Virus record (IMG/VR): IMGVR_UViG_3300030103_004672
Coordinates: 24,678 to 88,677 of that record
DNA from: a virus
Strand: one strand, 5' to 3'
DNA: 64,000 bases
Each line of letters opens with the position of its first letter. Position 1 is the stretch's first letter. The translations under genes and the position numbers were made by a program. The notes below the pieces were generated by a model, which saw only the letters and a list, made by a program, of their open reading frames with translations, was not told the DNA's origin and made no database searches. Shown piece after piece: positions 22,714 through 64,000 of this stretch.

Positions 22714-22727
22714 AATAAATAAGCAAT

Positions 22728-27703: not shown

Positions 27704-29440
27704 ATGTACGCAAATCGTCTTATTAATGAGGCTGAGGTTCAAAAGACTTGGACACCTATCATTTCAGAGGCTACTGGTATCGAGGACAAAAGCAAACTTG
27801 CTTGGATGTCTAAGTATTGCCACTACCATAACTTGAATGAGAGTGTTTATAACACTGTGCACCTCAACCCTAACATGAACCTTCAAGGTATGAATGCGCC
27901 AGCTTTCCCAAATGACCCAACTACCTTGAATGCATTCCCAGGCCAAGTAACTGGTTCTGGTGACAAACCTTTCTCTTTGCTTCCACTTGCTATGCAGGTT
28001 GCTGCTCAGACTGTAGGTCTTGACTTAGTACCTGTTGTGCCAATGCAAGGTCCTATGGGAGTATTAACTTACCTGGACTTCGTATACGGTGGTGGTAGAA
28101 TTCAAGATGCTGGTGGAAAAGCAACTGATTCTGCACCATTGATGATCAAATTCGCTTTTGATAACTTACAAGGTGCTGCTTTAGTAGAAAACGACCTAGT
28201 ATACGCATCTTCTGCCGCGCTTACTACAACTGTTGCTCCTTACGAATTAACATTCATTGGATTATCAAGAATTGATGGTAAATCTATTTTCCGTGTAAGA
28301 GGTAACGATGACGCCACTGCAACTACTGCTGGTGTTTACCAACAAGGTGAAGTAGGTTATGAGCCTATCTATGATGCAATTGCTAATAACGTAGACTTCT
28401 ACGATGCTGCTGCCGCACAAGCTGGTGATGTAAAAGGTACAGTTGACGGAAATGTTGAGTTAGTAAAAGCTTTAGAAGATCATATCCCAGGTTTCTCAGG
28501 TTCTGCATTTGAAGCAAACAACCCAGTTGGATCTGCTCCTACTTTCGGTGTTGAGAATATCGGTGGTGTTGACCCATACCAAAGAGGTGTTGGTGAAGCT
28601 ACTCCTGATAACAACTTAGGTCTTTCTTTATTCAACAAGTCAGTTGCTGCTATGACTTACCAAGTTGCAGCTGCTGTTACTCGTGAGCAAGTACAAGATC
28701 TTAAGCAATTCGGAATCGATGCAGTTGCTCAAGTAGAGGCTGTACTTGTTAATGAATTGACTCAGTCAATCAACAAGTTAATCCTTGATCGTATCTTCAA
28801 GCTTGGTGTAACTAACGCATTCCAAGTATCTCAAGTCAATGGAACAGTTCTTTCTGCTCACTTTGACCTAACTGGAGGTGTTGGTACTACAATTGCTCTC
28901 GGCCAAGATAACACTGGTACTGCTCGTTCAGTAACTGTTGATAGTGTTAACGTTGCTGGCGGTGGAGAAACTCAGGGTACTCTACAGCGTAGAATCTTAA
29001 CTAAGATCTTAGCTGCTACAAACCTTATCGCTGTACGTGGACGTCGTGGTCCAGCTACTTTCGCTGTAACTAGCGGAAAGATGGCCACTGCTATCCAAGA
29101 CGTTGCAGGTTTCGTACCTTACCCACTATCAAATACAGTTAACCAAGCTGGTGGATCACTCTACCCAATTGGTGCTGTTGCTGGTGTAACTATCTACGTT
29201 GATCCAAACCGTGATTTTGATGATAACAAGATTGCTGTTGGACGTAAAGGAGATGGAAACTCACCAGGATTGGTATTCATGCCTTACTTAATGGCTGAAT
29301 CAGTTGAGACAATCGCTGAAGGAACTATGGCTCCTAAAATTGCGGTTAAATCACGTTTCGCTCTTGTTGAGGCTGGTTTCCACCCACAAACTATGTACTA
29401 CACTTTAGACTTCGTGTTGACAGGTGTTGACTTGATCTAA
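27704..29440 (+). CDS. gp23: Major capsid protein
   Basis: VPVVPMQGP.G, EQVQDLK, L.NELTQSINK, FMPY, KSRFAL; strongly biased codon use. Confidence 0.92.
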   Translation: MYANRLINEAEVQKTWTPIISEATGIEDKSKLAWMSKYCHYHNLNESVYNTVHLNPNMNLQGMNAPAFPNDPTTLNAFPGQVTGSGDKPFSLLPLAMQVAAQTVGLDLVPVVPMQGPMGVLTYLDFVYGGGRIQDAGGKATDSAPLMIKFAFDNLQGAALVENDLVYASSAALTTTVAPYELTFIGLSRIDGKSIFRVRGNDDATATTAGVYQQGEVGYEPIYDAIANNVDFYDAAAAQAGDVKGTVDGNVELVKALEDHIPGFSGSAFEANNPVGSAPTFGVENIGGVDPYQRGVGEATPDNNLGLSLFNKSVAAMTYQVAAAVTREQVQDLKQFGIDAVAQVEAVLVNELTQSINKLILDRIFKLGVTNAFQVSQVNGTVLSAHFDLTGGVGTTIALGQDNTGTARSVTVDSVNVAGGGETQGTLQRRILTKILAATNLIAVRGRRGPATFAVTSGKMATAIQDVAGFVPYPLSNTVNQAGGSLYPIGAVAGVTIYVDPNRDFDDNKIAVGRKGDGNSPGLVFMPYLMAESVETIAEGTMAPKIAVKSRFALVEAGFHPQTMYYTLDFVLTGVDLI

Positions 29441-56676: not shown

Positions 56677-57416
56677 TGTCGATATCACAAGAACTTAAAA
56701 AGACGGTCAGTTTAAATGGCAAGAGGTATTACGATGTAGGAATTGACAAGCTGTTGCCTTCAGTAACCACAGTAATAGGTGAATTTGCTGATAAATCAGG
56801 AATTAAACATTGGATAGAAAGAGTAGGTGCGGAGAAGGCTCAGAAGATTACAAAATTTTCTGCAAACCGGGGTACGGTTATGCACCAAATGATTGAATAT
56901 TTTTTAACTTCATTCGAGAGGGAAGAAAGGCTTAGACTCATGGAGGCTCGCGAGAAAATAAAAAGTTATTGTGAATCCGAGGGATTTACTAGAGATGAAC
57001 GGCGAATGGGCGAGCGTTTATTCTACAATTTTTACAACACCGACACATTTGATAGAATAAAAAGAGTTGATAAATTAGAGGAAGCAGTTTGGTCAACAAA
57101 GAACGGTGGGTTTGCAGGGCGAACTGATGCTATATACGAAAACCAAAACGGCGGTATTATAATTCTTGACTTTAAAACCGCCAGAAAGGCAAAAAAGAGA
57201 AAATGGATAGATGATTATTTTCTGCAGGCAGCAGCTTATTACATTGCATATTGGGAAATGACTGGCGTGAAACCTGAAGGTGGAGAGATCTGGATAAGTA
57301 ACGAACAAGAAGGGTTTCCACAAGTTTTTGAGATCTATGAGAAGGATATGCAATACTATGGAGCTAAATTTTTAACCATGGTCAAAGATTTTCACACCAA
57401 ATACAACGAAGATTAA
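56676..57416 (+). CDS. PD-(D/E)XK exonuclease
   Basis: PSVTT, RGT..H, AGRTD, DFKT, Q..AY. Confidence 0.88.
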   Translation: MSISQELKKTVSLNGKRYYDVGIDKLLPSVTTVIGEFADKSGIKHWIERVGAEKAQKITKFSANRGTVMHQMIEYFLTSFEREERLRLMEAREKIKSYCESEGFTRDERRMGERLFYNFYNTDTFDRIKRVDKLEEAVWSTKNGGFAGRTDAIYENQNGGIIILDFKTARKAKKRKWIDDYFLQAAAYYIAYWEMTGVKPEGGEIWISNEQEGFPQVFEIYEKDMQYYGAKFLTMVKDFHTKYNED

Positions 57417-57440
57417 ATATATAAAGAAAAAATCATCATC

Positions 57441-57722
57441 TTGGGAAGAATTAAAAAATTTGCAGATTTTGTCTTAGAAGGCAAATCAGTTAAAATCATA
57501 CCAGCGGGTGATGAAGAGCAGGGTGATGGTTCAGACAGGGAAACTGAGGCGGAAGTTACATCATTTATGGATGCAGAAGAAGACAACTGCCCACGATGCG
57601 GTGAGCATGTAGAGGACTGCAGATGTGATGATTCGGATTATTGGTCAACCCAGACTTACCACAGAGTACCCAAAGGTAAAGTGGAAAAACCAAAACCAAA
57701 ACAGAATTTTAAAGACAAATAA
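57441..57722 (+). CDS. Small acidic Cys-containing protein, probable head-packaged protein
   Basis: AATATATAA at 57416; N-terminus IKKFADFVLE; CPRC...C.C. Confidence 0.55.
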   Translation: MGRIKKFADFVLEGKSVKIIPAGDEEQGDGSDRETEAEVTSFMDAEEDNCPRCGEHVEDCRCDDSDYWSTQTYHRVPKGKVEKPKPKQNFKDK

Positions 57723-57740
57723 CTTTTTAATAATTTTTAT

Positions 57741-58064
57741 ATGAAATATACAGAATACGTAAATTATGCAGTGTTAACTATTGTTTTTCTAGTTTTTATG
57801 CAGACATGTGGCACTAAAAAAAGAATAAGTAGAGCTTATGATGATCATCAGGAAACCCTTGATAGCCTTCAGACTGAGGTAGATTCCTTAAAGTCTATGA
57901 ATGCTAAAAAGTTTGGTGAGCTTTATGAACTATTAATAACCGAGGATGAAATGGTTGAACTGATCAAAGAAACACCTGCATGGAAAACGCTAAGAATTGA
58001 GGAGATATCTGACAAAGAAAGAATCTCAATTAACGCGTTAGAAGAAAGAGATCCAAATGAGTAG
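57741..58064 (+). CDS. Membrane-anchored coiled-coil protein
   Basis: N-terminal hydrophobic helix ending QTC, then coiled coil. Confidence 0.55.
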   Translation: MKYTEYVNYAVLTIVFLVFMQTCGTKKRISRAYDDHQETLDSLQTEVDSLKSMNAKKFGELYELLITEDEMVELIKETPAWKTLRIEEISDKERISINALEERDPNE

Positions 58065-58572
58065 AATAATTCCAGGCGTGCCCACACCCAGATCAGGTGA
58101 TCCAACCTGTGTTCTTTCGACTTGTGCTAGAATAATAGCACAGGTCGATTGTGTTTTAACTGTGTTGCAGGGTGCAACTGGTTGTGTAGAAATACAGCTT
58201 TTTAATAAAGAGGGTAAACCGCTCGATCTAGATAGGTTTTCCGAAATGCACGTTATGCTCTATGATGAGCTAGAATGTGTAGTTGCAAATTTCTTTTGGC
58301 CAAACATACCTACAGGATGTACAGGTCATCTTATAGAAGTATTACAGAGAACCACTTCAACTGGAACTATTGTTGACAAAGGTTTAATTAAGGTTTGTCT
58401 TTCAAAAGAATGTACAAGTAGAAGCCCAGGTAAGATATTTGCAGAGATAAGGCTGACCGAACCTGCAACTGAAACAGGTGGCACTGACGATATTATAGGA
58501 GTCAAGTGTATTTGGGTTGCTCAGATATTAGAATCATTAATTTATAAAAACGGATGCGATGACGGCTGCTAA
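58057..58572 (+). CDS. Cys-rich (11 Cys) beta-type protein, possibly virion-associated
   Basis: QG...EIQL....GKPLDL pattern typical of Ig-like baseplate/tail adaptor domains. Confidence 0.4.
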   Translation: MSRIIPGVPTPRSGDPTCVLSTCARIIAQVDCVLTVLQGATGCVEIQLFNKEGKPLDLDRFSEMHVMLYDELECVVANFFWPNIPTGCTGHLIEVLQRTTSTGTIVDKGLIKVCLSKECTSRSPGKIFAEIRLTEPATETGGTDDIIGVKCIWVAQILESLIYKNGCDDGC

Positions 58573-59293
58573 AAGCAAACTAGTTAATTTTTTCATCATA
58601 GGTATTTTTACAAGTCTTTACATTTTAGTTGCAACAATATCTATGATCAATAGTGTTGATTTCTTTGATCTTAGTCATGATAGAAACTTGGCATGGTCAT
58701 TGGCCATTGGATTTGAAATGGGTGCAGCAGCATCTCTTGCTGCAATCATTATATTAGACAAGACAAATAAATTTTTAGTTTGGGGACTATTCTTGCTATT
58801 AACACTTTTCCAAATGATGGCAAATTCATATCATGCCTTTGTTAGCCTTGAAGAATTCCAGGGTTGGATAGAGTTATTCGGACTACAAGAAGAAGAGCCA
58901 TTAACACAAAAAAGAATTTTAGCCATTTTAAGTGGTGCTATTTTACCACTTGTAGCTTTAGGTTTTATTAAATCATTGGTTGACTATTTAAGACCTGATG
59001 ATTTACAGATACCAAAACAAATTCAAGCTGAAGAAGAAATAGCTAACAAAAGAATTATGAATGTAATTGATCAAAATGAAAACATTGGTTTCAATTATAC
59101 TGATAAAGAACAAAGTGAAGAACAGCTCAAAACTATAGAGGTAGTTGTTGAGCCAAAGGTGGTCAATGATACGACTAATGTGAGTGCAAACGACGAAAAG
59201 GAATCTGTTTCTGAAAAGGACACAACTGATAGTTTGGATAAGAATCAGGTTCAACGGCCTCGAAAGGCATTCACCAAGCAGTATAAGCCCTAA
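58559..59293 (+). CDS. Four-TM membrane protein with acidic tail
   Basis: Four hydrophobic segments in the first 140 aa. Confidence 0.65.
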   Translation: MTAAKSKLVNFFIIGIFTSLYILVATISMINSVDFFDLSHDRNLAWSLAIGFEMGAAASLAAIIILDKTNKFLVWGLFLLLTLFQMMANSYHAFVSLEEFQGWIELFGLQEEEPLTQKRILAILSGAILPLVALGFIKSLVDYLRPDDLQIPKQIQAEEEIANKRIMNVIDQNENIGFNYTDKEQSEEQLKTIEVVVEPKVVNDTTNVSANDEKESVSEKDTTDSLDKNQVQRPRKAFTKQYKP

Positions 59294-59334
59294 ATCTGCA
59301 TTATGAAACAGGGTAAAAAATATACTACTGGTTT

Positions 59335-60018
59335 ATGTCAAAGGAAGCGCGCGAAGAATCTGTGTTTCATGAAAAACGGAGACCTAAAAATCCAATAAAA
59401 TTTAATATTACATTAAACGAGGAGCAAAAGTTAGCAAAAGAAAAAATATTAAGAAACACAATAACAGTTCTAGCTGGTAGAGCTGGATCTGGAAAGACAC
59501 TGTTAGCTTGCCAAATTGCTTTAGATGGATTGTTTCGAAAGGAATACGAAAAAATTATTATAACAAGGCCAACCGTATCCAAAGAGGATATCGGATTTCT
59601 GCCAGGAAACTTAAAAGAGAAACTAGATCCCTGGGTTCAGCCAATTTACCAAAACATGTATCAATTATATGATCGTGAAAAGGTAAATAAACATCTAGAA
59701 AATAGTGATATCGAGATAGTACCTATCTCATTTATGCGAGGCAGGACATTCTTAGATAGCTGTGTAATTGTTGATGAGGCACAAAACGTGACAATGGAGC
59801 AAATGCAAATGATTGTAACTAGAGTTGGTTTGCGAAGCAAAATGATAATTTGTGGAGATGCTGCTCAGATAGATCTAAAAACAAGAAGAGAATCAGGTTT
59901 TAGCTTTTTATATGATGCAGCAGAAAGCATTGAGCACTTAGCAGCCATCTTGCTTGAAACTAACCATAGAAATCCTATTGTAGATGAGCTAATTGAATAT
60001 TATTCTAAGTATAGTTAA
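59335..60018 (+). CDS. phoH: PhoH-family ATPase
   Basis: GRAGSGKT, TRP, GFLPG, FMRGRTF, DEAQN, GD..QIDL, HR. Confidence 0.95.
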   Translation: MSKEAREESVFHEKRRPKNPIKFNITLNEEQKLAKEKILRNTITVLAGRAGSGKTLLACQIALDGLFRKEYEKIIITRPTVSKEDIGFLPGNLKEKLDPWVQPIYQNMYQLYDREKVNKHLENSDIEIVPISFMRGRTFLDSCVIVDEAQNVTMEQMQMIVTRVGLRSKMIICGDAAQIDLKTRRESGFSFLYDAAESIEHLAAILLETNHRNPIVDELIEYYSKYS

Positions 60019-60028
60019 TAAATAACTT

Positions 60029-61651
60029 ATGGTCATAGACTTAAAGTATATTTTTACTGCCGTTTCGGCTATGCTAACAATTTTAACATTTTTTGTTGTC
60101 AAGACACTAGGAGTATTTGATATAATAGAGCACTCTCAAACAGTAGATCTTTTTGAATATTTTTCATTTATATTGTTCTTGCCTTTCTTTTTTCATTTGG
60201 GTTGGCAAATTTTTACGACTACAAAGAGAGAGAAGGTTAGCCGAAAGGCACTACAAGACATTCTTGATGATTCATGCTTGGTATTGAGAGCAGATGCTAA
60301 CGGTAAAATAGTTTTTGTTAATGATTTATTTTGCAAAACATCTGGATACAAACCACATGAACTTTTAGGAAAGGAATATAACTCACTCGGTTGTAAGGAA
60401 TATCATGATGATGAATTTTGGGAAAACGCTATAAGTACTACAGTCAAATATAGATCTATATGGCAAGAGGTTGTAACTAATATGCATAAAGAAGAACGGT
60501 GCTATATAGTTAACACTTGGATGATGGCAGAATTTAATGAAAACGGTGAGCATATAGGTTTTCTTTCTGTAAGCCAGGACATAACTAAACTTATGGATTC
60601 ATTAGACATGGTTGATAAAAAATCAAAAGAAGTTGAGAACGTTTTGTCAGCTATTGATAAATCAAATGCAGTAATTGAATTTTTACCACATGGGCATATT
60701 ATAACAGCAAATAAAAACTTTCTGGACTTGATGGGATATTCTCTTGAAGAAATAAAAAATGAACATCATTCGATATTTGTAGATGAAAAAACAAAAATAT
60801 CCAAAGGGTACGATAACTTTTGGAAATCTTTAAGAAACGGTAATTTTAGATCTGGTGAATTTACGAGATATAAAAAAAATGGAGAAACCGTTTACATTCA
60901 GGGCACTTACAACCCTATTATGGATGAAGATGGAAATCTAGAAAGAGTTCTCAAGGTTGTTACGGACATAACAGATTCAGTTGTACAGAAACAAGAAATA
61001 GAAAGAAAAAATGCATATTTGGAACACGCAGCTAAAATATTGCGACATGACATGCATTCAGGAATTAACACATATATACCTCGAGGTCTATCATCTCTAA
61101 AAAGGAGAATCACTGATGAGAAAATAGAAGAGTTGCGTTTATCTTCTCCTATGAAAATGTTAGAGGAGGGGCTTAAACATGCACAAAGGGTTTACAATGG
61201 CGTAAAAGAATTCACAAACTTAGTTAAAAAAGATGCAATTCTAGAAAAAGAGTTTCTTGATCTAAATGTAATTTTAGAAAATTATTTGTCGTCAACATCC
61301 TATAAATCACAGGTTAATATAGACGTATTGCCGTCTGCGGAGGTAAATGAATCATTATTTTGCACAGCTATAGACAATCTAATTAGAAACGGCTTAAAAT
61401 ATAATGATAGTCCAACTAAACAGATAAATATTTATTATGAATCAGGGTATTTGATTATCAAGGATAACGGCCGAGGAATGACTAAAGAACAATTTAGACA
61501 TTACAGTCAACCGTATACCAGAGGTAAAAATCAAAAAGAAGCAGGATCTGGTTTAGGATTAAATATTTGTATATCGATACTAGCAGAACATGGGTTTGAA
61601 GTAGAGTCTACAAAACTTAAAAATGGAACTAAAATAAAAATAAAATTATGA
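60029..61651 (+). CDS. Membrane sensor histidine kinase, 2TM-PAS-PAS-HisKA-HATPase
   Basis: H-box LRHDM, N-box NLIRNGLKY, DNGRGM, GSGLGL; two PAS/PAC domains. Confidence 0.92.
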   Translation: MVIDLKYIFTAVSAMLTILTFFVVKTLGVFDIIEHSQTVDLFEYFSFILFLPFFFHLGWQIFTTTKREKVSRKALQDILDDSCLVLRADANGKIVFVNDLFCKTSGYKPHELLGKEYNSLGCKEYHDDEFWENAISTTVKYRSIWQEVVTNMHKEERCYIVNTWMMAEFNENGEHIGFLSVSQDITKLMDSLDMVDKKSKEVENVLSAIDKSNAVIEFLPHGHIITANKNFLDLMGYSLEEIKNEHHSIFVDEKTKISKGYDNFWKSLRNGNFRSGEFTRYKKNGETVYIQGTYNPIMDEDGNLERVLKVVTDITDSVVQKQEIERKNAYLEHAAKILRHDMHSGINTYIPRGLSSLKRRITDEKIEELRLSSPMKMLEEGLKHAQRVYNGVKEFTNLVKKDAILEKEFLDLNVILENYLSSTSYKSQVNIDVLPSAEVNESLFCTAIDNLIRNGLKYNDSPTKQINIYYESGYLIIKDNGRGMTKEQFRHYSQPYTRGKNQKEAGSGLGLNICISILAEHGFEVESTKLKNGTKIKIKL

Positions 61652-62085
61652 TACCATCAATATTATTAGTAGATGATGAAGATCTATTTCATTTAGTATT
61701 CGAAGACGCATGTAGCTTATTAGACATTACACTTTCTTTACAGTCAGTAAATTCAGCTGACGATGCAGCAACTATGTTTAAGGAATGGTATGATAATGGG
61801 CACAGTGGTGATAGACCTGCATGTGCTTTTATAGATTTAAACATTATAGGTTCTTCATTTGATGGAATAGAACTTATAAGAAAAATAAACAAAGAATATG
61901 GTAATGGTGTCGTTATTGGTATCATATCATCATCTAGTGATCAAGATGAAATAGAAAAATCTAAAGAAGTCGGTGCACAGTTTTGGATTATAAAGTCTGA
62001 CGAAATAGAGCCTCGATTGGAACAATTTAGGGAAGATTACGAAGGATTTAAAGATAGAATCATGCCTTTTAAAGTTTACAAATAA
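61648..62085 (+). CDS. Stand-alone response regulator receiver
   Basis: LLVDDE, FIDLN (phospho-Asp), DGIELI, ISSS, IIK; ATGA overlap with the kinase. Confidence 0.92.
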   Translation: MIPSILLVDDEDLFHLVFEDACSLLDITLSLQSVNSADDAATMFKEWYDNGHSGDRPACAFIDLNIIGSSFDGIELIRKINKEYGNGVVIGIISSSSDQDEIEKSKEVGAQFWIIKSDEIEPRLEQFREDYEGFKDRIMPFKVYK

Positions 62086-62086
62086 T

Positions 62087-62674
62087 ATGATTATAAAGGG
62101 TTCCCATAGGGATTTAATTTTACAGTTAATATCAAAAAAGGTTTTTTTAGAGGGAAACATTCTAAAGCTATTGCGCGCTGAAGAAGGTGACACTGAAATA
62201 AACGATTACCTGACAGCGTGCAAGGATAAGGACCAATCCGCTAGAAAAAAGAGGCTTGCGATTACTAAGAAGATCCAATCGCAAAACAGAGAACTAATAG
62301 ATGCAGATAAAGCAAACAACGCGCTGATGCGTCAGATTTCTGAATCACTAGAACAGACTAAAATAGCTAAGGATGAAGCAGATAAAGCTAGGCATGAAGC
62401 AGAATTACTTAGAGATGCTGCAGTAGAAGACTTGGATGCACTACAGAAACGAGTACAGACAGAATTAATAGGTACTATCGTAAGAGTCTCGCTGATAGTT
62501 ATATGTTCAGTAGGGCTGTTAACAACTGGACTGTATATCTATGTTATGTCTATAGGTGCAGATACAAAAATCGTAGAGTCGACATGGTCAAATTTATTTG
62601 GAATTTTGCTTACCAACTCATTTAGTATAATTGGAACTATTATGGGTGTTAAATACGCGACAGAAAAGCAATAA
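62087..62674 (+). CDS. Coiled-coil protein with two C-terminal TM helices, third gene of the two-component operon
   Basis: Starts 1 nt after the receiver stop; long heptad region then two hydrophobic helices. Confidence 0.7.
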   Translation: MIIKGSHRDLILQLISKKVFLEGNILKLLRAEEGDTEINDYLTACKDKDQSARKKRLAITKKIQSQNRELIDADKANNALMRQISESLEQTKIAKDEADKARHEAELLRDAAVEDLDALQKRVQTELIGTIVRVSLIVICSVGLLTTGLYIYVMSIGADTKIVESTWSNLFGILLTNSFSIIGTIMGVKYATEKQ

Positions 62675-62795
62675 TATTTAACGAAAAAAACTATATATAA
62701 AAAATAAGGGCCAACATTATTAGCATAGTTTAGAATATTAAATACAAAGCATTTTATATGTTAGAATTTGGTCGGTAAACATACGAGAATGAAAT

Positions 62796-63023
62796 ATGTG
62801 GATCAAAGAAATATTCAAAGACAAAAACGATATAAATGAAAAATCTGTTATAGGATTCCTTTCATTTGCAGTAATGGTAACTTTTGCAGTGGCAGATCTC
62901 CTTACAGGTTATGTAGGCACAGACCTAGTAATCAACGAGTTTATTTATAATTCATTTGTTTTGATAACCTTAGGTTCTCTAGGAATTGCGGGAGCCGAAA
63001 AAATATTTGGCTCACGATCATGA
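62796..63023 (+). CDS. Small two-TM protein, holin-like
   Basis: 75 aa, two TM helices, LGIAGAEK; TATATATAA at 62692. Confidence 0.5.
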   Translation: MWIKEIFKDKNDINEKSVIGFLSFAVMVTFAVADLLTGYVGTDLVINEFIYNSFVLITLGSLGIAGAEKIFGSRS

Positions 63024-64000
63024 TAAAGAATTTATTAACACTAATTACATTTTTACCTTTATTTCTATCAGCTCAAACAAGCTGGGTAGCATTTAGATTA
63101 GAAACTGATACTCATCCCGAAGAATTTTCTTGGTATGTTGAAGAAGTGGCAACTGGTGATACAGTTGATCAAGGAGGTAATTATGTAGGTGGCTCATATG
63201 GTCCAGCAGGAGAAAGAACACTTATAACTGAGTATATTGAATTACCTAATACAGGAGATTATATTTTATGGTTAGAGGACGCAGCTGGAAATGGATTTGA
63301 CAGTATACCTAATGATGAAGTTGAATTCTTTGTTGGTAACTGGTGTGGATTTCAAAATGATGACATACCAGGATATACAAACTGGACAGCTTGGGGCTAT
63401 CCATTTACAATACCTAACTCATGTCCTTTACCAACTATTGGTTGTTTAGATCCTAATTCATCTAATTATGACTCATTAGCTAATTTTACTTTATTTGGAA
63501 CTGCTTGTGAATATATTTGGGATGTAACATTTCAATTAGATATTTCAAATGCACCTCCTATGGATACTCCTGAGGTAAATGGAATATTTAATGCGTGGTG
63601 TGGTGATTGTAATCAAATGACTGATATGGGTAATGGTATATGGGAAACCACTATATCAATACCAGGTGGAGTATATCCTTACAAATTTTCAGCTGATGAT
63701 TTTGCTATACAAGAACAGCCATTTATTGGTGCTAATAATTCTTGTTTTCAAGAAGATTTTGGATTTGTAAATAGAATATTAGATGTAGACAGAGATACAG
63801 TATTACCATTAGTATGCTGGGAGTCTTGTTTACCATGCGGTGCAGTTCCTGGTTGTACTGATCCTACTTCACCTAATTGGAATCCATGGGCTAATTATGA
63901 TGATGGAACTTGTTTAATTACTTGTCCTCCTAATTCAGAAATACTTCAAATAGAATTAACAACTGATCAATATCCTGATGAAACAGAATGGGAAGTAAGA
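63020..64000 (+). CDS. Secreted Bacteroidota-type multidomain protein (3' truncated); absent from ORF track
   Basis: Manual translation open to window end: signal peptide MIKNLLTLITFLPLFLSAQ, GCLDPNSSNY and GCTDPTSPNWNP.AN.DDGTC repeats, CBM48-like VNGIFNAW...DMGNGIW...YKF, repeated TD.(H/Y)P.E..W domain. Confidence 0.75.
   Translation, partial: MIKNLLTLITFLPLFLSAQTSWVAFRLETDTHPEEFSWYVEEVATGDTVDQGGNYVGGSYGPAGERTLITEYIELPNTGDYILWLEDAAGNGFDSIPNDEVEFFVGNWCGFQNDDIPGYTNWTAWGYPFTIPNSCPLPTIGCLDPNSSNYDSLANFTLFGTACEYIWDVTFQLDISNAPPMDTPEVNGIFNAWCGDCNQMTDMGNGIWETTISIPGGVYPYKFSADDFAIQEQPFIGANNSCFQEDFGFVNRILDVDRDTVLPLVCWESCLPCGAVPGCTDPTSPNWNPWANYDDGTCLITCPPNSEILQIELTTDQYPDETEWEVR

Follow-up and report, generated by a model that had tools for sequence, protein, structure and literature searches.

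Gene content and phage origin of the locus

The analysed window is the whole 64,000-nt stretch at the end of an 88,677-bp IMG/VR virus contig (IMGVR_UViG_3300030103_004672) that was estimated to be 32% complete. The source phage is an uncultured marine giant phage. The same window also contains genes for DNA polymerase, RNR, portal, capsid, terminase and sheath. Four successive ORFs encode a histidine kinase, a receiver-only protein, a coiled-coil/two-transmembrane (2-TM) protein, here termed the hairpin protein, and a 75-aa 2-TM protein; the first three are referred to as the trio. This layout had been described in an earlier note made from the sequence alone, and the ORF list and sequence agreed with it in positions, ATGA overlap and 1-nt spacing. 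The kinase and receiver genes overlap by ATGA, a single base separates the receiver stop codon from the ATG of the hairpin gene, and the 75-aa gene overlaps the following ORF by ATGA. The features are:

59335..60018, + strand: phoH-like ATPase gene (PF02562, 211 bits), upstream neighbour outside the conserved cassette
60029..61651, + strand: membrane-anchored PAS-PAS histidine kinase, 540 aa (ORF and Pfam)
60071..60199, + strand: N-terminal membrane anchor of the kinase, hydrophobic segments at aa 15-33 and 39-57 with a short connecting loop (hydropathy)
60266..60583, + strand: PAS1, aa 80-185, MmoS/Aer/NifL-like (Pfam PAS, PDB matches)
60683..60976, + strand: PAS2, aa 219-316, flavin-PAS group (Pfam PAS_9/PAS_3, PDB matches)
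61046..61048, + strand: codon of His340, the predicted phospho-acceptor (H-box conservation, alignment to kinase 8f71)
61355..61648, + strand: HATPase_c, aa 443-540, with N, G1 and G2 boxes (PF02518, 50.9 bits, cut-off 26.4)
61648..62085, + strand: receiver-only response regulator, 145 aa (PF00072)
62087..62674, + strand: hairpin protein (coiled-coil/2-TM), 195 aa (ORF, hydropathy)
62087..62464, + strand: cytoplasmic part of the hairpin protein, N-domain aa 1-75 and long coiled-coil helix (alignment, AlphaFold)
62465..62674, + strand: two-helix membrane hairpin, proposed output element (hydropathy, alignment)
62675..62795, no strand: AT-rich spacer of 121 nt between the hairpin gene and the 75-aa gene (sequence)
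62796..63023, + strand: 2-TM protein, 75 aa, holin-like candidate (hydropathy)
63020..64000, + strand: secreted multidomain ORF, cut by the contig end (weak carbohydrate-binding-module matches only)

No terminator-like site was called on the + strand of the spacer. The last ORF occupies the slot that holds an endolysin gene in relatives, and contigs of other runs fragment into short variant pieces across it. The position of the block right after phoH is real in this contig and incidental as a conserved feature: within the fetched DNA (up to 6 kb per side), phoH occurred in three of 80 relatives (L003, L004, L006), where it lies about 5 kb downstream of the hairpin gene and is never adjacent.

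Because the block lies less than 4 kb from the contig end and PAS kinases and receivers are typically bacterial, we considered an origin from host DNA, either at the edge of a prophage or through chimeric assembly of the contig end. Such an origin is extremely improbable. The strand, spacing and G+C content of the block match those of the phage genes, contigs from runs of three other studies span the phoH/kinase and the receiver/hairpin/75-aa gene junctions with phage genes upstream, and the hairpin family is nearly absent from prokaryote genomes (see below). With structural genes on the contig and junctions bridged by contigs of other studies, the DNA is that of a phage.

Histidine kinase and PAS domains

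The kinase is an intact 2TM-PAS-PAS protein, with two PAS stretches, a HATPase_c domain, an invariant H-box and two hydrophobic segments, the second of which (aa 39-57) is the weaker (hydropathy 1.56). All 59 full-length kinase relatives have one or two N-terminal hydrophobic segments. His340 is, together with 25 residues around it, invariant or almost so among 59 distinct relatives, and it aligns with the H-box of the solved kinase 8f71; the Pfam HisKA model gave no score for the kinase. The N, G1 and G2 boxes (aa 450, 479 and 506) are invariant in 59 relatives. Kinase identity is 72% in L169, the closest relative, 81% in L002, and 45-64% over the kinase core in other loci.

By sequence, the closest relatives of both PAS domains are the flavin PAS group (Aer/NifL/MmoS). 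PAS1 matched MmoS (3ewk, E 1.3e-12), Aer (8dik, 4.3e-5) and NifL (2gj3, 1.1e-4) in the PDB, in line with the Aer/NifL likeness noted before and extending it to MmoS, while its score against the NCBIfam NifL N-terminus (76 bits) was far under the cut-off of 242. PAS2 matched 3ewk (9e-9) and 8dik (1.2e-6), followed by LOV domains. PAS2 retains a Trp and an Asn aligned with those of Aer, PAS1 lacks that Asn, and in both domains the stretch aligned with the Aer segment around His-Pro-Asp differs; we take the Trp, the Asn and this segment of Aer to be the FAD-relevant positions. The columns of PAS1 are occupied in less than 10% of 59 kinase sequences and PAS2 is present in about 80% of kinase relatives. 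Some relatives are PAS-less kinases of about 300 aa that retain the membrane anchor alone, which points to signalling within the membrane.

Receiver-only protein and its predicted partner

The receiver matched PF00072 with 33.0 bits (cut-off 30.2), its nearest solved homologue is 3ilh (E 8.5e-6), and the CheY-like canonical positions (acidic pair, phospho-Asp, Ser/Thr, Lys) are intact. D9, D10, D63, S94-96, W113 and K116 are invariant in 21 sequences, and a mean column identity of 84% in the same set makes it the best-conserved gene of the trio. No output domain was found: the fold is followed by a conserved tail of about 25 aa without further Pfam matches. A 145-aa receiver without a second Pfam domain upholds the description of the module as one without DNA-binding output.

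A complex of the receiver with aa 1-125 of the hairpin protein was modelled alongside three controls. The model passed weakly: its ipSAE was 0.55 (best of the three controls, 0.00), where 58 of the 80 solved complexes and, among 110 mismatched pairs, 2 exceed or equal the pass mark, and where values up to 0.60 comprise just 7 of the 80 solved complexes, yet both passing mismatched pairs. At least 93% of contacts agreed between runs, with a partner pLDDT of at least 88.

The hairpin protein as proposed output

The AlphaFold model of the hairpin protein (pLDDT 83) contains a single helix from aa 36 to 156, hydropathy peaks at aa 127-145 and 170-188, and model and hydropathy leave essentially no periplasmic part. 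No family in Pfam or PHROG matched the protein. Across 26 sequences with 51-91% identity elsewhere, 26 of the 27 residues of the second helix (aa 165-191) are invariant, and small or polar Ser, Thr, Asn and Gly recur at about every fourth position, including a G-x-x-x-G motif. The N-domain is also fused to HisKA and HATPase_c in four proteins.

In a sister family, the sensor is fused directly to the coiled coil and hairpin, with PAS-PAS (P0170), PAS (P0173) or GAF (P0150) as the sensory part. P0170 has 253 IMG/VR relatives, 80 of which were fetched; its PAS pair shares 30-46% identity with aa 65-332 of the kinase in the window, and none of the 80 loci has a receiver gene nearby. Since sensors are joined to the same hairpin in fusions that have no receiver gene close by, the hairpin is best seen as the output. 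The comparative data support the earlier proposals that a kinase and receiver-only pair is coupled to a membrane protein and signals to it.

The receiver could instead serve as a phosphate sink or source for host two-component systems, with the kinase cross-talking with host regulators. Receiver-only proteins can act as sinks, and no other gene of the set is as well conserved as the receiver. However, the receiver always occurs with its own kinase and hairpin gene, direct sensor-hairpin fusions exist without any receiver, and no single target kinase would be common to hosts of phages this diverse. The fusions and the constant company of the receiver argue that the pathway ends at the hairpin and not at host regulators; we regard the sink or source role, which the earlier note had offered as an alternative and which found no support here, as very unlikely.

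Distribution and conservation of the trio

By sequence comparison, the trio forms a virus-only cassette that is conserved and mobile. At 90% clustering, 5301 relatives of the hairpin protein were counted, which have no Pfam family and fall into 244 clusters at 50% identity, and all Atlas matches to the family are in virus-only clusters. Among 463 IMG/VR relatives, gene order was kept in 80 of the 80 fetched, with the kinase in 76 and the receiver in 79 of these loci; the misses are loci cut at that end. The comparison of phages with bacteria proposed earlier accordingly showed a trio conserved in viruses and a hairpin family represented in just three MAG contigs among 185,579 prokaryote species. 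The hairpin protein had no match in GenBank phage records, and we found no paper describing a kinase-receiver-hairpin module. The view that two-component modules are rare in phages therefore holds for deposited genomes and fails for metagenomic phage contigs, in which they are very common.

The trio is much better conserved (receiver about 73%, hairpin about 55% identity) than the phage backbone; in G001 and G003, the capsid protein shows 28% identity along a part of its sequence. At DNA level, the similarity of L169 to the window is confined to the trio (74% over 2,595 nt), and its flanks are unrelated. Additional genes accompany the cassette: a 62-aa small membrane protein precedes the kinase in 35 loci, a 4-TM protein is inserted in 14 trio loci, and a proteorhodopsin-like gene lies between the receiver and hairpin genes in three loci.

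Association with lysis genes

In 55 of 80 trio loci and 72 of 80 fusion loci, the fetched flanks contained a lysis-type gene; where both flanks reached at least 3 kb, the counts were 22 of 36 and 30 of 34, respectively. These counts come from related phages with shared synteny, and so are not independent events, and they used four enzyme clusters, two of which have no verified lytic family (none for cluster 72, DUF5675 for cluster 76). In 49 of 80 fusion loci, a gene of the 75-aa type is located no more than 400 nt from the hairpin gene, and 75-aa homologues in relatives immediately precede genes for amidase, M15 or other enzymes. In L169, the trio is followed by a small 2-TM protein and then by a PG_binding_1 and Amidase_2 protein (amidase endolysin). 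The Flavobacterium phage vB_FspM_immuto_2-6A (NC_055915) encodes a 57%-identical 75-aa homologue directly upstream of its annotated endolysin and holin; this holin is 63% identical to the 4-TM protein beside the trio in relatives, and the phage also encodes a homologue of the 357-aa membrane protein located at the end of the cassettes in relatives. None of the kinase, receiver and hairpin genes was found in NC_055915, so that this cultured phage represents a natural "empty" version of the lysis cassette.

In the window itself, the 75-aa protein has hydropathy peaks at aa 18-36 and 49-67 and fits the pattern of a holin, which is small, with one to four membrane helices and a charged C-terminus; it matched no Pfam, PHROG, NCBIfam or PADLOC family, hence no described holin family. 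The designation "2TM holin-like" is thus right as to topology and lacks a family match. The gene is followed by the secreted protein and no recognisable endolysin, and searches of the 88.7-kb contig (about 32% of the genome) detected none of the families Amidase_2, Peptidase_M15_3 and Phage_lysozyme. The link to lysis suggested by the earlier note hence draws on the relatives and is not visible in this contig.

Proximity to lysis genes could also reflect clustering of membrane genes, with the cassette controlling another membrane process such as superinfection exclusion, respiration or transport in the host, or assembly at the membrane. In 19 of 80 loci, the trio adjoins baseplate genes and the flanks contain no lysis gene; about 158 kb separate the trio from the 75-aa homologue in G001, a complete phage of 252.6 kb; and other small membrane proteins, the 62-aa and 4-TM proteins mentioned above, travel with the trio. 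Against this, relay and fusion versions in phages whose capsids are barely or not alike both adjoin the same lysis genes, and the gene order in L169 places the trio, 2-TM protein and endolysin in one row. We judge a role outside lysis to be unlikely.

Proposed function in lysis timing

Because the trio is common to thousands of related phage sequences and usually lies beside host-bursting genes, the cassette probably lets the virus time lysis by the energy state of its host, as far as sequence comparison can tell. Our working model, to which we give slightly more credence than to its negation, is of a signalling cassette in large aquatic phages that is self-contained, moves horizontally and would exert redox- or energy-controlled lysis timing via action of the hairpin on the holin pathway. 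The membrane-anchored kinase would read a cytoplasmic signal, most likely of redox or flavin type, via one or two MmoS/Aer/NifL-type PAS domains, autophosphorylate on His340 and pass the phosphate to Asp63 of the receiver. The receiver would then contact the small N-domain of the hairpin protein, and the long coiled coil would relay the change to the two-helix membrane hairpin as the output. The hairpin would most likely act within the membrane on the phage holin pathway, for which the adjacent 75-aa 2-TM protein and, in relatives, the 4-TM holin are candidates, and lysis might thereby be advanced or delayed according to host energy or redox state.

Alternatively, the hairpin itself may permeabilise the membrane as a signal-gated pinholin or ion leak, oligomers of its second helix depolarising the membrane and triggering ordinary holins, in place of a regulator that binds a holin. 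The near invariance of the second helix, its regularly spaced small and polar residues with G-x-x-x-G, and the virtual lack of a periplasmic part would suit such a function, as would the persistence of the trio in phages without a nearby holin gene; the proteorhodopsin-like gene inside the trio at three loci fits a membrane-potential theme. However, the fold search with the hairpin protein returned no channel or holin (best E 4.3), no holin family matched, and helix invariance could equally mean binding to a conserved partner. We consider direct permeabilisation unlikely.

A wider proposal embraces both modes of action. Aquatic phages would possess a phosphorylation-controlled lysis clock in which a flavin-type PAS gates the hairpin directly (in the fusions) or by a private His-Asp relay, and the hairpin either times the holin or itself depolarises the membrane; the phages carrying such a clock would form a large, unnamed class. 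We advance the clock and the class together and tentatively, as a little more likely wrong than right.

Lysis timing sets burst size and phage fitness. To our knowledge, the tuning of lysis timing known so far is through holin sequence and, in T4-like phages, through superinfection. If such a clock exists, it would be the first case in which a two-component system takes a phage lysis decision, and it would define a new, non-transcriptional output class for these systems. With a widespread sensor relay of their own that ends in a membrane effector, many marine and freshwater phages would actively read host physiology before lysis, which bears on aquatic carbon release. Two-component signalling would gain a membrane-hairpin output without DNA binding, and a virus-only family with over 5,000 sequence clusters would acquire a function. 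A natural series makes the question testable: kinases with no, one or two PAS domains, PAS/GAF-hairpin fusions and the trio-less Flavobacterium phage.

Comparison with known systems

In lysis inhibition of T4, holin T is governed by the antiholins RI and RIII, and the signal is superinfection sensed in the periplasm. The proposed cassette would resemble it by analogy, in that a phage sets holin firing by a sensed signal through small accessory proteins at the membrane. T4 does so without kinase, receiver or phosphorylation, whereas the trio has cytoplasmic PAS domains, a predicted His-Asp relay and a hairpin almost without periplasmic part. An assignment of the hairpin protein as a T4-type RI/RIII antiholin was rejected, as it had no PHROG or Pfam family and no GenBank phage match.

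LytSR controls the holin/antiholin-like proteins LrgAB/CidAB in staphylococci, Bacillus and streptococci and is likewise, by analogy, a two-component system tied to holin-like membrane proteins and membrane energy state. It is, however, bacterial and transcriptional, with a LytTR DNA-binding regulator and the 5-TM sensor LytS. In the phage, the receiver lacks an output domain and probably acts by contact on a separate membrane protein, the output. Membership in LytSR-LrgAB was rejected, since the trio has no LytTR output and its kinase combines a two-segment anchor with PAS; the likeness is one of analogy only.

Aer, NifL and MmoS are, by sequence, the most similar group for both kinase PAS domains, and Aer is held at the membrane by a two-helix hairpin, as the phage kinase is anchored. 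Aer signals through HAMP and CheA, in contrast, and NifL through binding of NifA. For the receiver, the closest parallels are CheY-FliM and DivK: it is receiver-only, with an intact acidic pocket and Ser and aromatic switch positions, and must act by protein contact. It would differ from CheY-type receivers in its proposed target, a virus-only coiled-coil membrane protein.

Gene organization and phage context

The open reading frames (ORFs) named in the earlier note were all exactly as stated on re-inspection. In window numbering, the ORF calls are:

59335-60018, + strand: phoH
60029-61651, + strand: kinase, 540 aa
61648-62085, + strand: receiver, 145 aa
62087-62674, + strand: coiled-coil protein with two membrane helices (2-TM), 195 aa, here called the hairpin protein
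62796-63023, + strand: 2-TM protein, 75 aa, a holin-like candidate
from 63020, + strand: secreted protein, running off the contig end

The kinase and receiver genes overlap by ATGA and a single base separates the receiver stop from the hairpin start. A 121-nt spacer follows before the 75-aa gene, which ends in a second ATGA overlap at 63020. A promoter scan returned 36 sigma-70-like sites versus 31.2 expected, and no common promoter motif precedes the kinase in relatives (2 of 44 distinct upstream regions versus 29 of 477 for other genes), because the genes are packed so tightly. The octamer ATAAATAA occurs in eight copies on the + strand and one on the - strand; those at 22715, 34635, 37313, 43310, 56204, and 60018 lie 4–18 nt upstream of gene starts, among them the kinase gene and genes adjoining structural genes. 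It is possibly a phage promoter or start-context motif; relatives show no enrichment of it upstream of their kinase genes. No RNA data set was listed among the 20 sequencing runs found, which speaks neither for nor against expression.

Nearly all window ORFs lie on the + strand, the G+C content is 32–43%, and the gene complement includes DNA polymerase, ribonucleotide reductase, DnaB, SbcC, portal, major head protein, large terminase, and tail sheath. The 88,677-bp IMG/VR record, whose final 64 kb make up the window, has a CheckV completeness of ~32%, and the genome is therefore roughly 250 kb or more. The major head protein (27704-29440) has 56% identity to its homologue in LR756500, an uncultured 462-kb phage, and ~35% to those of Lak megaphages of Prevotella, which puts the phage in the vicinity of huge Bacteroidota-type phages.

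A two-component system could in principle have entered the contig as host DNA or by chimeric assembly, as the earlier note had cautioned. At least 84% of the sampled words from 59300-63900 were present in eight runs from three studies (marine/aquatic metagenomes), one of these runs possibly being the sample of origin of the window, and the following contigs from runs X1, X4, and X8 bridge the junctions:

57000-61458: X1 record 1
57000-61683: X4 record 9
58813-60369: X8 record 21
61685-63093: X4 record 10

X1 record 2 and X8 record 23 span the receiver, hairpin, and 75-aa genes. Independent assemblies join the block to the phage genes upstream of it, even with one study omitted, and it is neither chimeric nor, with very little doubt, host DNA. 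At window positions 63000-64000, which hold the secreted ORF, contigs of three other runs fragment into 120–450-nt pieces with many variant letters, at a summed depth two to three times higher. The pattern suggests microdiversity or a shared region, which is probably why the IMG/VR contig ends there.

Conservation and mobility of the kinase–receiver–hairpin trio

A total of 463 relatives of the hairpin protein are present in IMG/VR, and the loci of 80 were fetched. Gene order kinase–receiver–hairpin is fixed in these loci, with the receiver present in 79 and the kinase in 76; loci without receiver or kinase end at that point. A scan of 185,579 species (one genome each) placed the hairpin family, outside viruses, on three metagenome-assembled genome (MAG) contigs only. 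These contigs (L083, L084, L085; 21–89 kb), labelled Bdellovibrionota, Gemmatimonadota, and Alphaproteobacteria, are probably mis-binned phage contigs. The adjacency to phoH mentioned in the earlier note did not extend to the relatives: phoH was found in the fetched DNA of 3/80 loci only, ~5 kb off. Among 50,697 GenBank phage records, the hairpin protein and the receiver were without a match and the kinase had three weak matches only, and full-text literature searches found no description of a kinase–receiver–hairpin module.

Among trio relatives, the receiver is ~73% and the hairpin protein ~55% identical. The window capsid protein matches those of two other trio-bearing phages at 28% identity over part of its length only, and has no match in two phages that carry sensor–hairpin fusions. 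The closest relative with both flanks, L169, has identities of 72% (kinase), 90% (receiver), and 79% (hairpin protein), and at the DNA level matches the window contig across the trio only (74% over 2,595 nt), the genes on either flank being unrelated. The trio is, judged from these comparisons, a mobile cassette.

Additional genes accompany the trio in some loci. In 14/80 (L032 5520-6014, + strand, and 13 others), a gene between those for the receiver and the hairpin protein encodes a 164-aa protein, which combines about four membrane helices with a C-terminal coiled coil. Three of these 14 (L040 and L043, 5391-5969, + strand; also L044) also have a 192-aa proteorhodopsin-like gene between receiver and hairpin genes. 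Its product scores 46.6 bits against Pfam Bac_rhodopsin (cut-off 24.6), matches green proteorhodopsin (E 1.4e-9) and the viral rhodopsin OLPVRII (E 2.9e-6) in the PDB, and aligns a Gln to the proteorhodopsin proton-donor (Glu) position. A light-driven pump or channel in the cassette would fit a membrane-potential theme. Immediately upstream of the kinase, 35/80 loci (L045 4111-4299, + strand, and 34 others) encode a 62-aa membrane protein in which a Cys-Pro is conserved; the window lacks this protein. It occurs in lysis-linked and baseplate-linked settings and may be a fourth module member.

Kinase and receiver

The kinase begins with two hydrophobic segments, followed by two PAS domains and HATPase_c (Pfam). 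Pfam HisKA gave no score on the window kinase; the His340 H-box and the N, G1, and G2 boxes are invariant among 59 distinct relatives. PAS1 matches MmoS (3ewk, 1.3e-12), Aer (8dik, 4.3e-5), and NifL (2gj3, 1.1e-4) in the PDB, in agreement with the likeness to Aer/NifL flavin PAS domains pointed out in the earlier note, and the NCBIfam NifL model matches it far under its cut-off. PAS2 matches 3ewk (9e-9) and 8dik (1.2e-6), followed by LOV domains. By sequence similarity, the nearest group for both domains is flavin PAS. Relatives of the kinase fall into three length classes, namely ~300 aa without PAS, ~410–430 aa with one PAS, and 540–602 aa with two, all with the N-terminal membrane anchor.

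The receiver retains D9, D10, D63, S94-96, W113, and K116, has no output domain, and is the best-conserved gene of the set (mean column identity 84%, 21 sequences). Passages of PMC7824862 deal with an NAD-linked receiver that differs from the phage receiver. PADLOC defence models matched none of the kinase, receiver, hairpin, and 75-aa proteins.

The hairpin protein as the probable output of a sensor relay

The hairpin protein matches no Pfam, PHROG, NCBIfam, or PADLOC family. In its structural model (pLDDT 83), a small element at the N-terminus precedes one very long helix (aa 36-156), and the chain returns as a second helix (aa 161-194). From this we infer a membrane hairpin whose periplasmic loop is almost absent, joined through a coiled coil to a cytoplasmic N-domain. 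A fold search against the PDB returned a best E of 4.3 and no match at E <= 0.001. Of 5509 candidates in the 90%-clustered collection, 5301 are relatives at E <= 0.001, and the family forms 244 clusters at 50% identity. None of the 120 hairpin relatives listed had a Pfam family, and the longest contig is 215,900 bp. A function as His phosphotransfer protein was rejected, because the coiled-coil His103 is not conserved. Across 26 sequences that are elsewhere 51–91% identical, there is almost no variation in the second membrane helix, which is rich in Ser/Thr/Asn/Gly. One of the two main rivals to a relay that acts on lysis is a hairpin acting as a gated leak or pinholin in its own right.

An exhaustive profile search identified fusions of the hairpin with sensor domains. 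In P0170, two PAS domains take the place of the N-domain ahead of the same coiled coil and hairpin; P0173 has one PAS and P0150 a GAF domain in this position. In P0248, P0262, P0266, and P0267, the N-domain stands ahead of a HisKA+HATPase_c core, and thus behaves as a portable input module. These four proteins also contain the start of the coiled coil, without the membrane helices; P0262 has no IMG/VR relative. P0194 joins the N-domain to a FecCD permease and is a possible artefact. From 1553 candidates, a word-index search for longer fused forms yielded only P0121 (458 aa, no Pfam); its N-part resembles a neighbouring structural gene and it may be a gene-call fusion.

The P0170 family has 253 relatives in IMG/VR, and its PAS pair shares 30–46% identity with aa 65-332 of the window kinase. 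None of the 80 fetched P0170-type loci contains a receiver gene. Like sensors are joined to the same hairpin either directly or via kinase, receiver, and N-domain, a comparison that would fix the direction of the signal and makes the hairpin very probably the output of a phage-owned sensor relay. A receiver devoid of an output domain would also suit a phosphate sink, as had been proposed; beside fusions that dispense with the receiver, such a role of the module is very unlikely. The modelled complex of receiver and hairpin N-part reached the pass mark with a score of 0.55 (best of three controls 0.00; at least 93% of contacts agreeing between runs; partner pLDDT at least 88). The pass is weak: 58/80 solved complexes and 2/110 mismatched pairs reached the mark, and just 7 of these 80 had scores <=0.60, as did both mismatched pairs that passed.

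Lysis neighbourhood

Genes recurring around the trio in relatives encode a small 2-TM protein (75-aa-type or 80-aa-type), an enzyme (PG_binding_1+Amidase_2 or Peptidase_M15_3, both above Pfam cut-offs, or two putative families), a 4-TM protein with a sub-threshold Phage_holin_4_1 match, the 62-aa membrane protein, and a 357-aa membrane/coiled-coil protein. Lysis-type genes were detected by tblastn in the fetched flanks of 55/80 trio loci (22/36 where at least 3 kb were available on both sides) and 72/80 fusion loci (30/34), counts that are not independent events because the loci derive from related phages. In 49/80 fusion loci, no more than 400 nt separate the hairpin gene from a 75-aa-type gene. 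The order in L169 is M23 peptidase, 620-aa protein, kinase, receiver, hairpin, small 2-TM protein, and amidase endolysin; this 2-TM protein bears a weak likeness to the window 75-aa protein (33% over 33 residues, pairwise E 1e-6).

A link to lysis is weakened by several observations. In the window contig, the 75-aa gene is followed by the secreted-protein gene, and no relatives of the lysis enzymes, Amidase_2, Peptidase_M15_3, or Phage_lysozyme were found in the 88.7 kb. Baseplate genes without a flanking lysis gene occur in 19/80 trio loci. In the complete 252.6-kb trio-bearing phage G001, the 75-aa homologue is ~158 kb from the trio, beside spanin-like ORFs; in G002, it is ~13 kb away, beside an amidase. 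The baseplate settings and the distance in G001 would suit the other main rival, that the hairpin serves another membrane process, and the lysis-type flanks of most fetched loci would not. We lean, by a small measure, towards the full reading, in which a phage-owned sensor relay to a membrane hairpin also times lysis according to an energy or redox signal, close to what the earlier note had envisaged.

Comparison with a cultured phage

The same lysis cassette is present in the cultured Flavobacterium phage vB_FspM_immuto_2-6A (L249, NC_055915 39470-47652), whose host is LMO8. A 57%-identical 75-aa homologue lies directly upstream of its annotated endolysin and holin genes, the holin has 63% identity to the 4-TM protein of trio relatives, and a homologue of the 357-aa protein follows downstream. 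This suggests a Flavobacteriia-type host range for the lysis gene set. Unlike the trio phages, vB_FspM_immuto_2-6A is without kinase, receiver, and hairpin gene; it thus represents a natural trio-less cassette and would allow the trio to be tested in culture.
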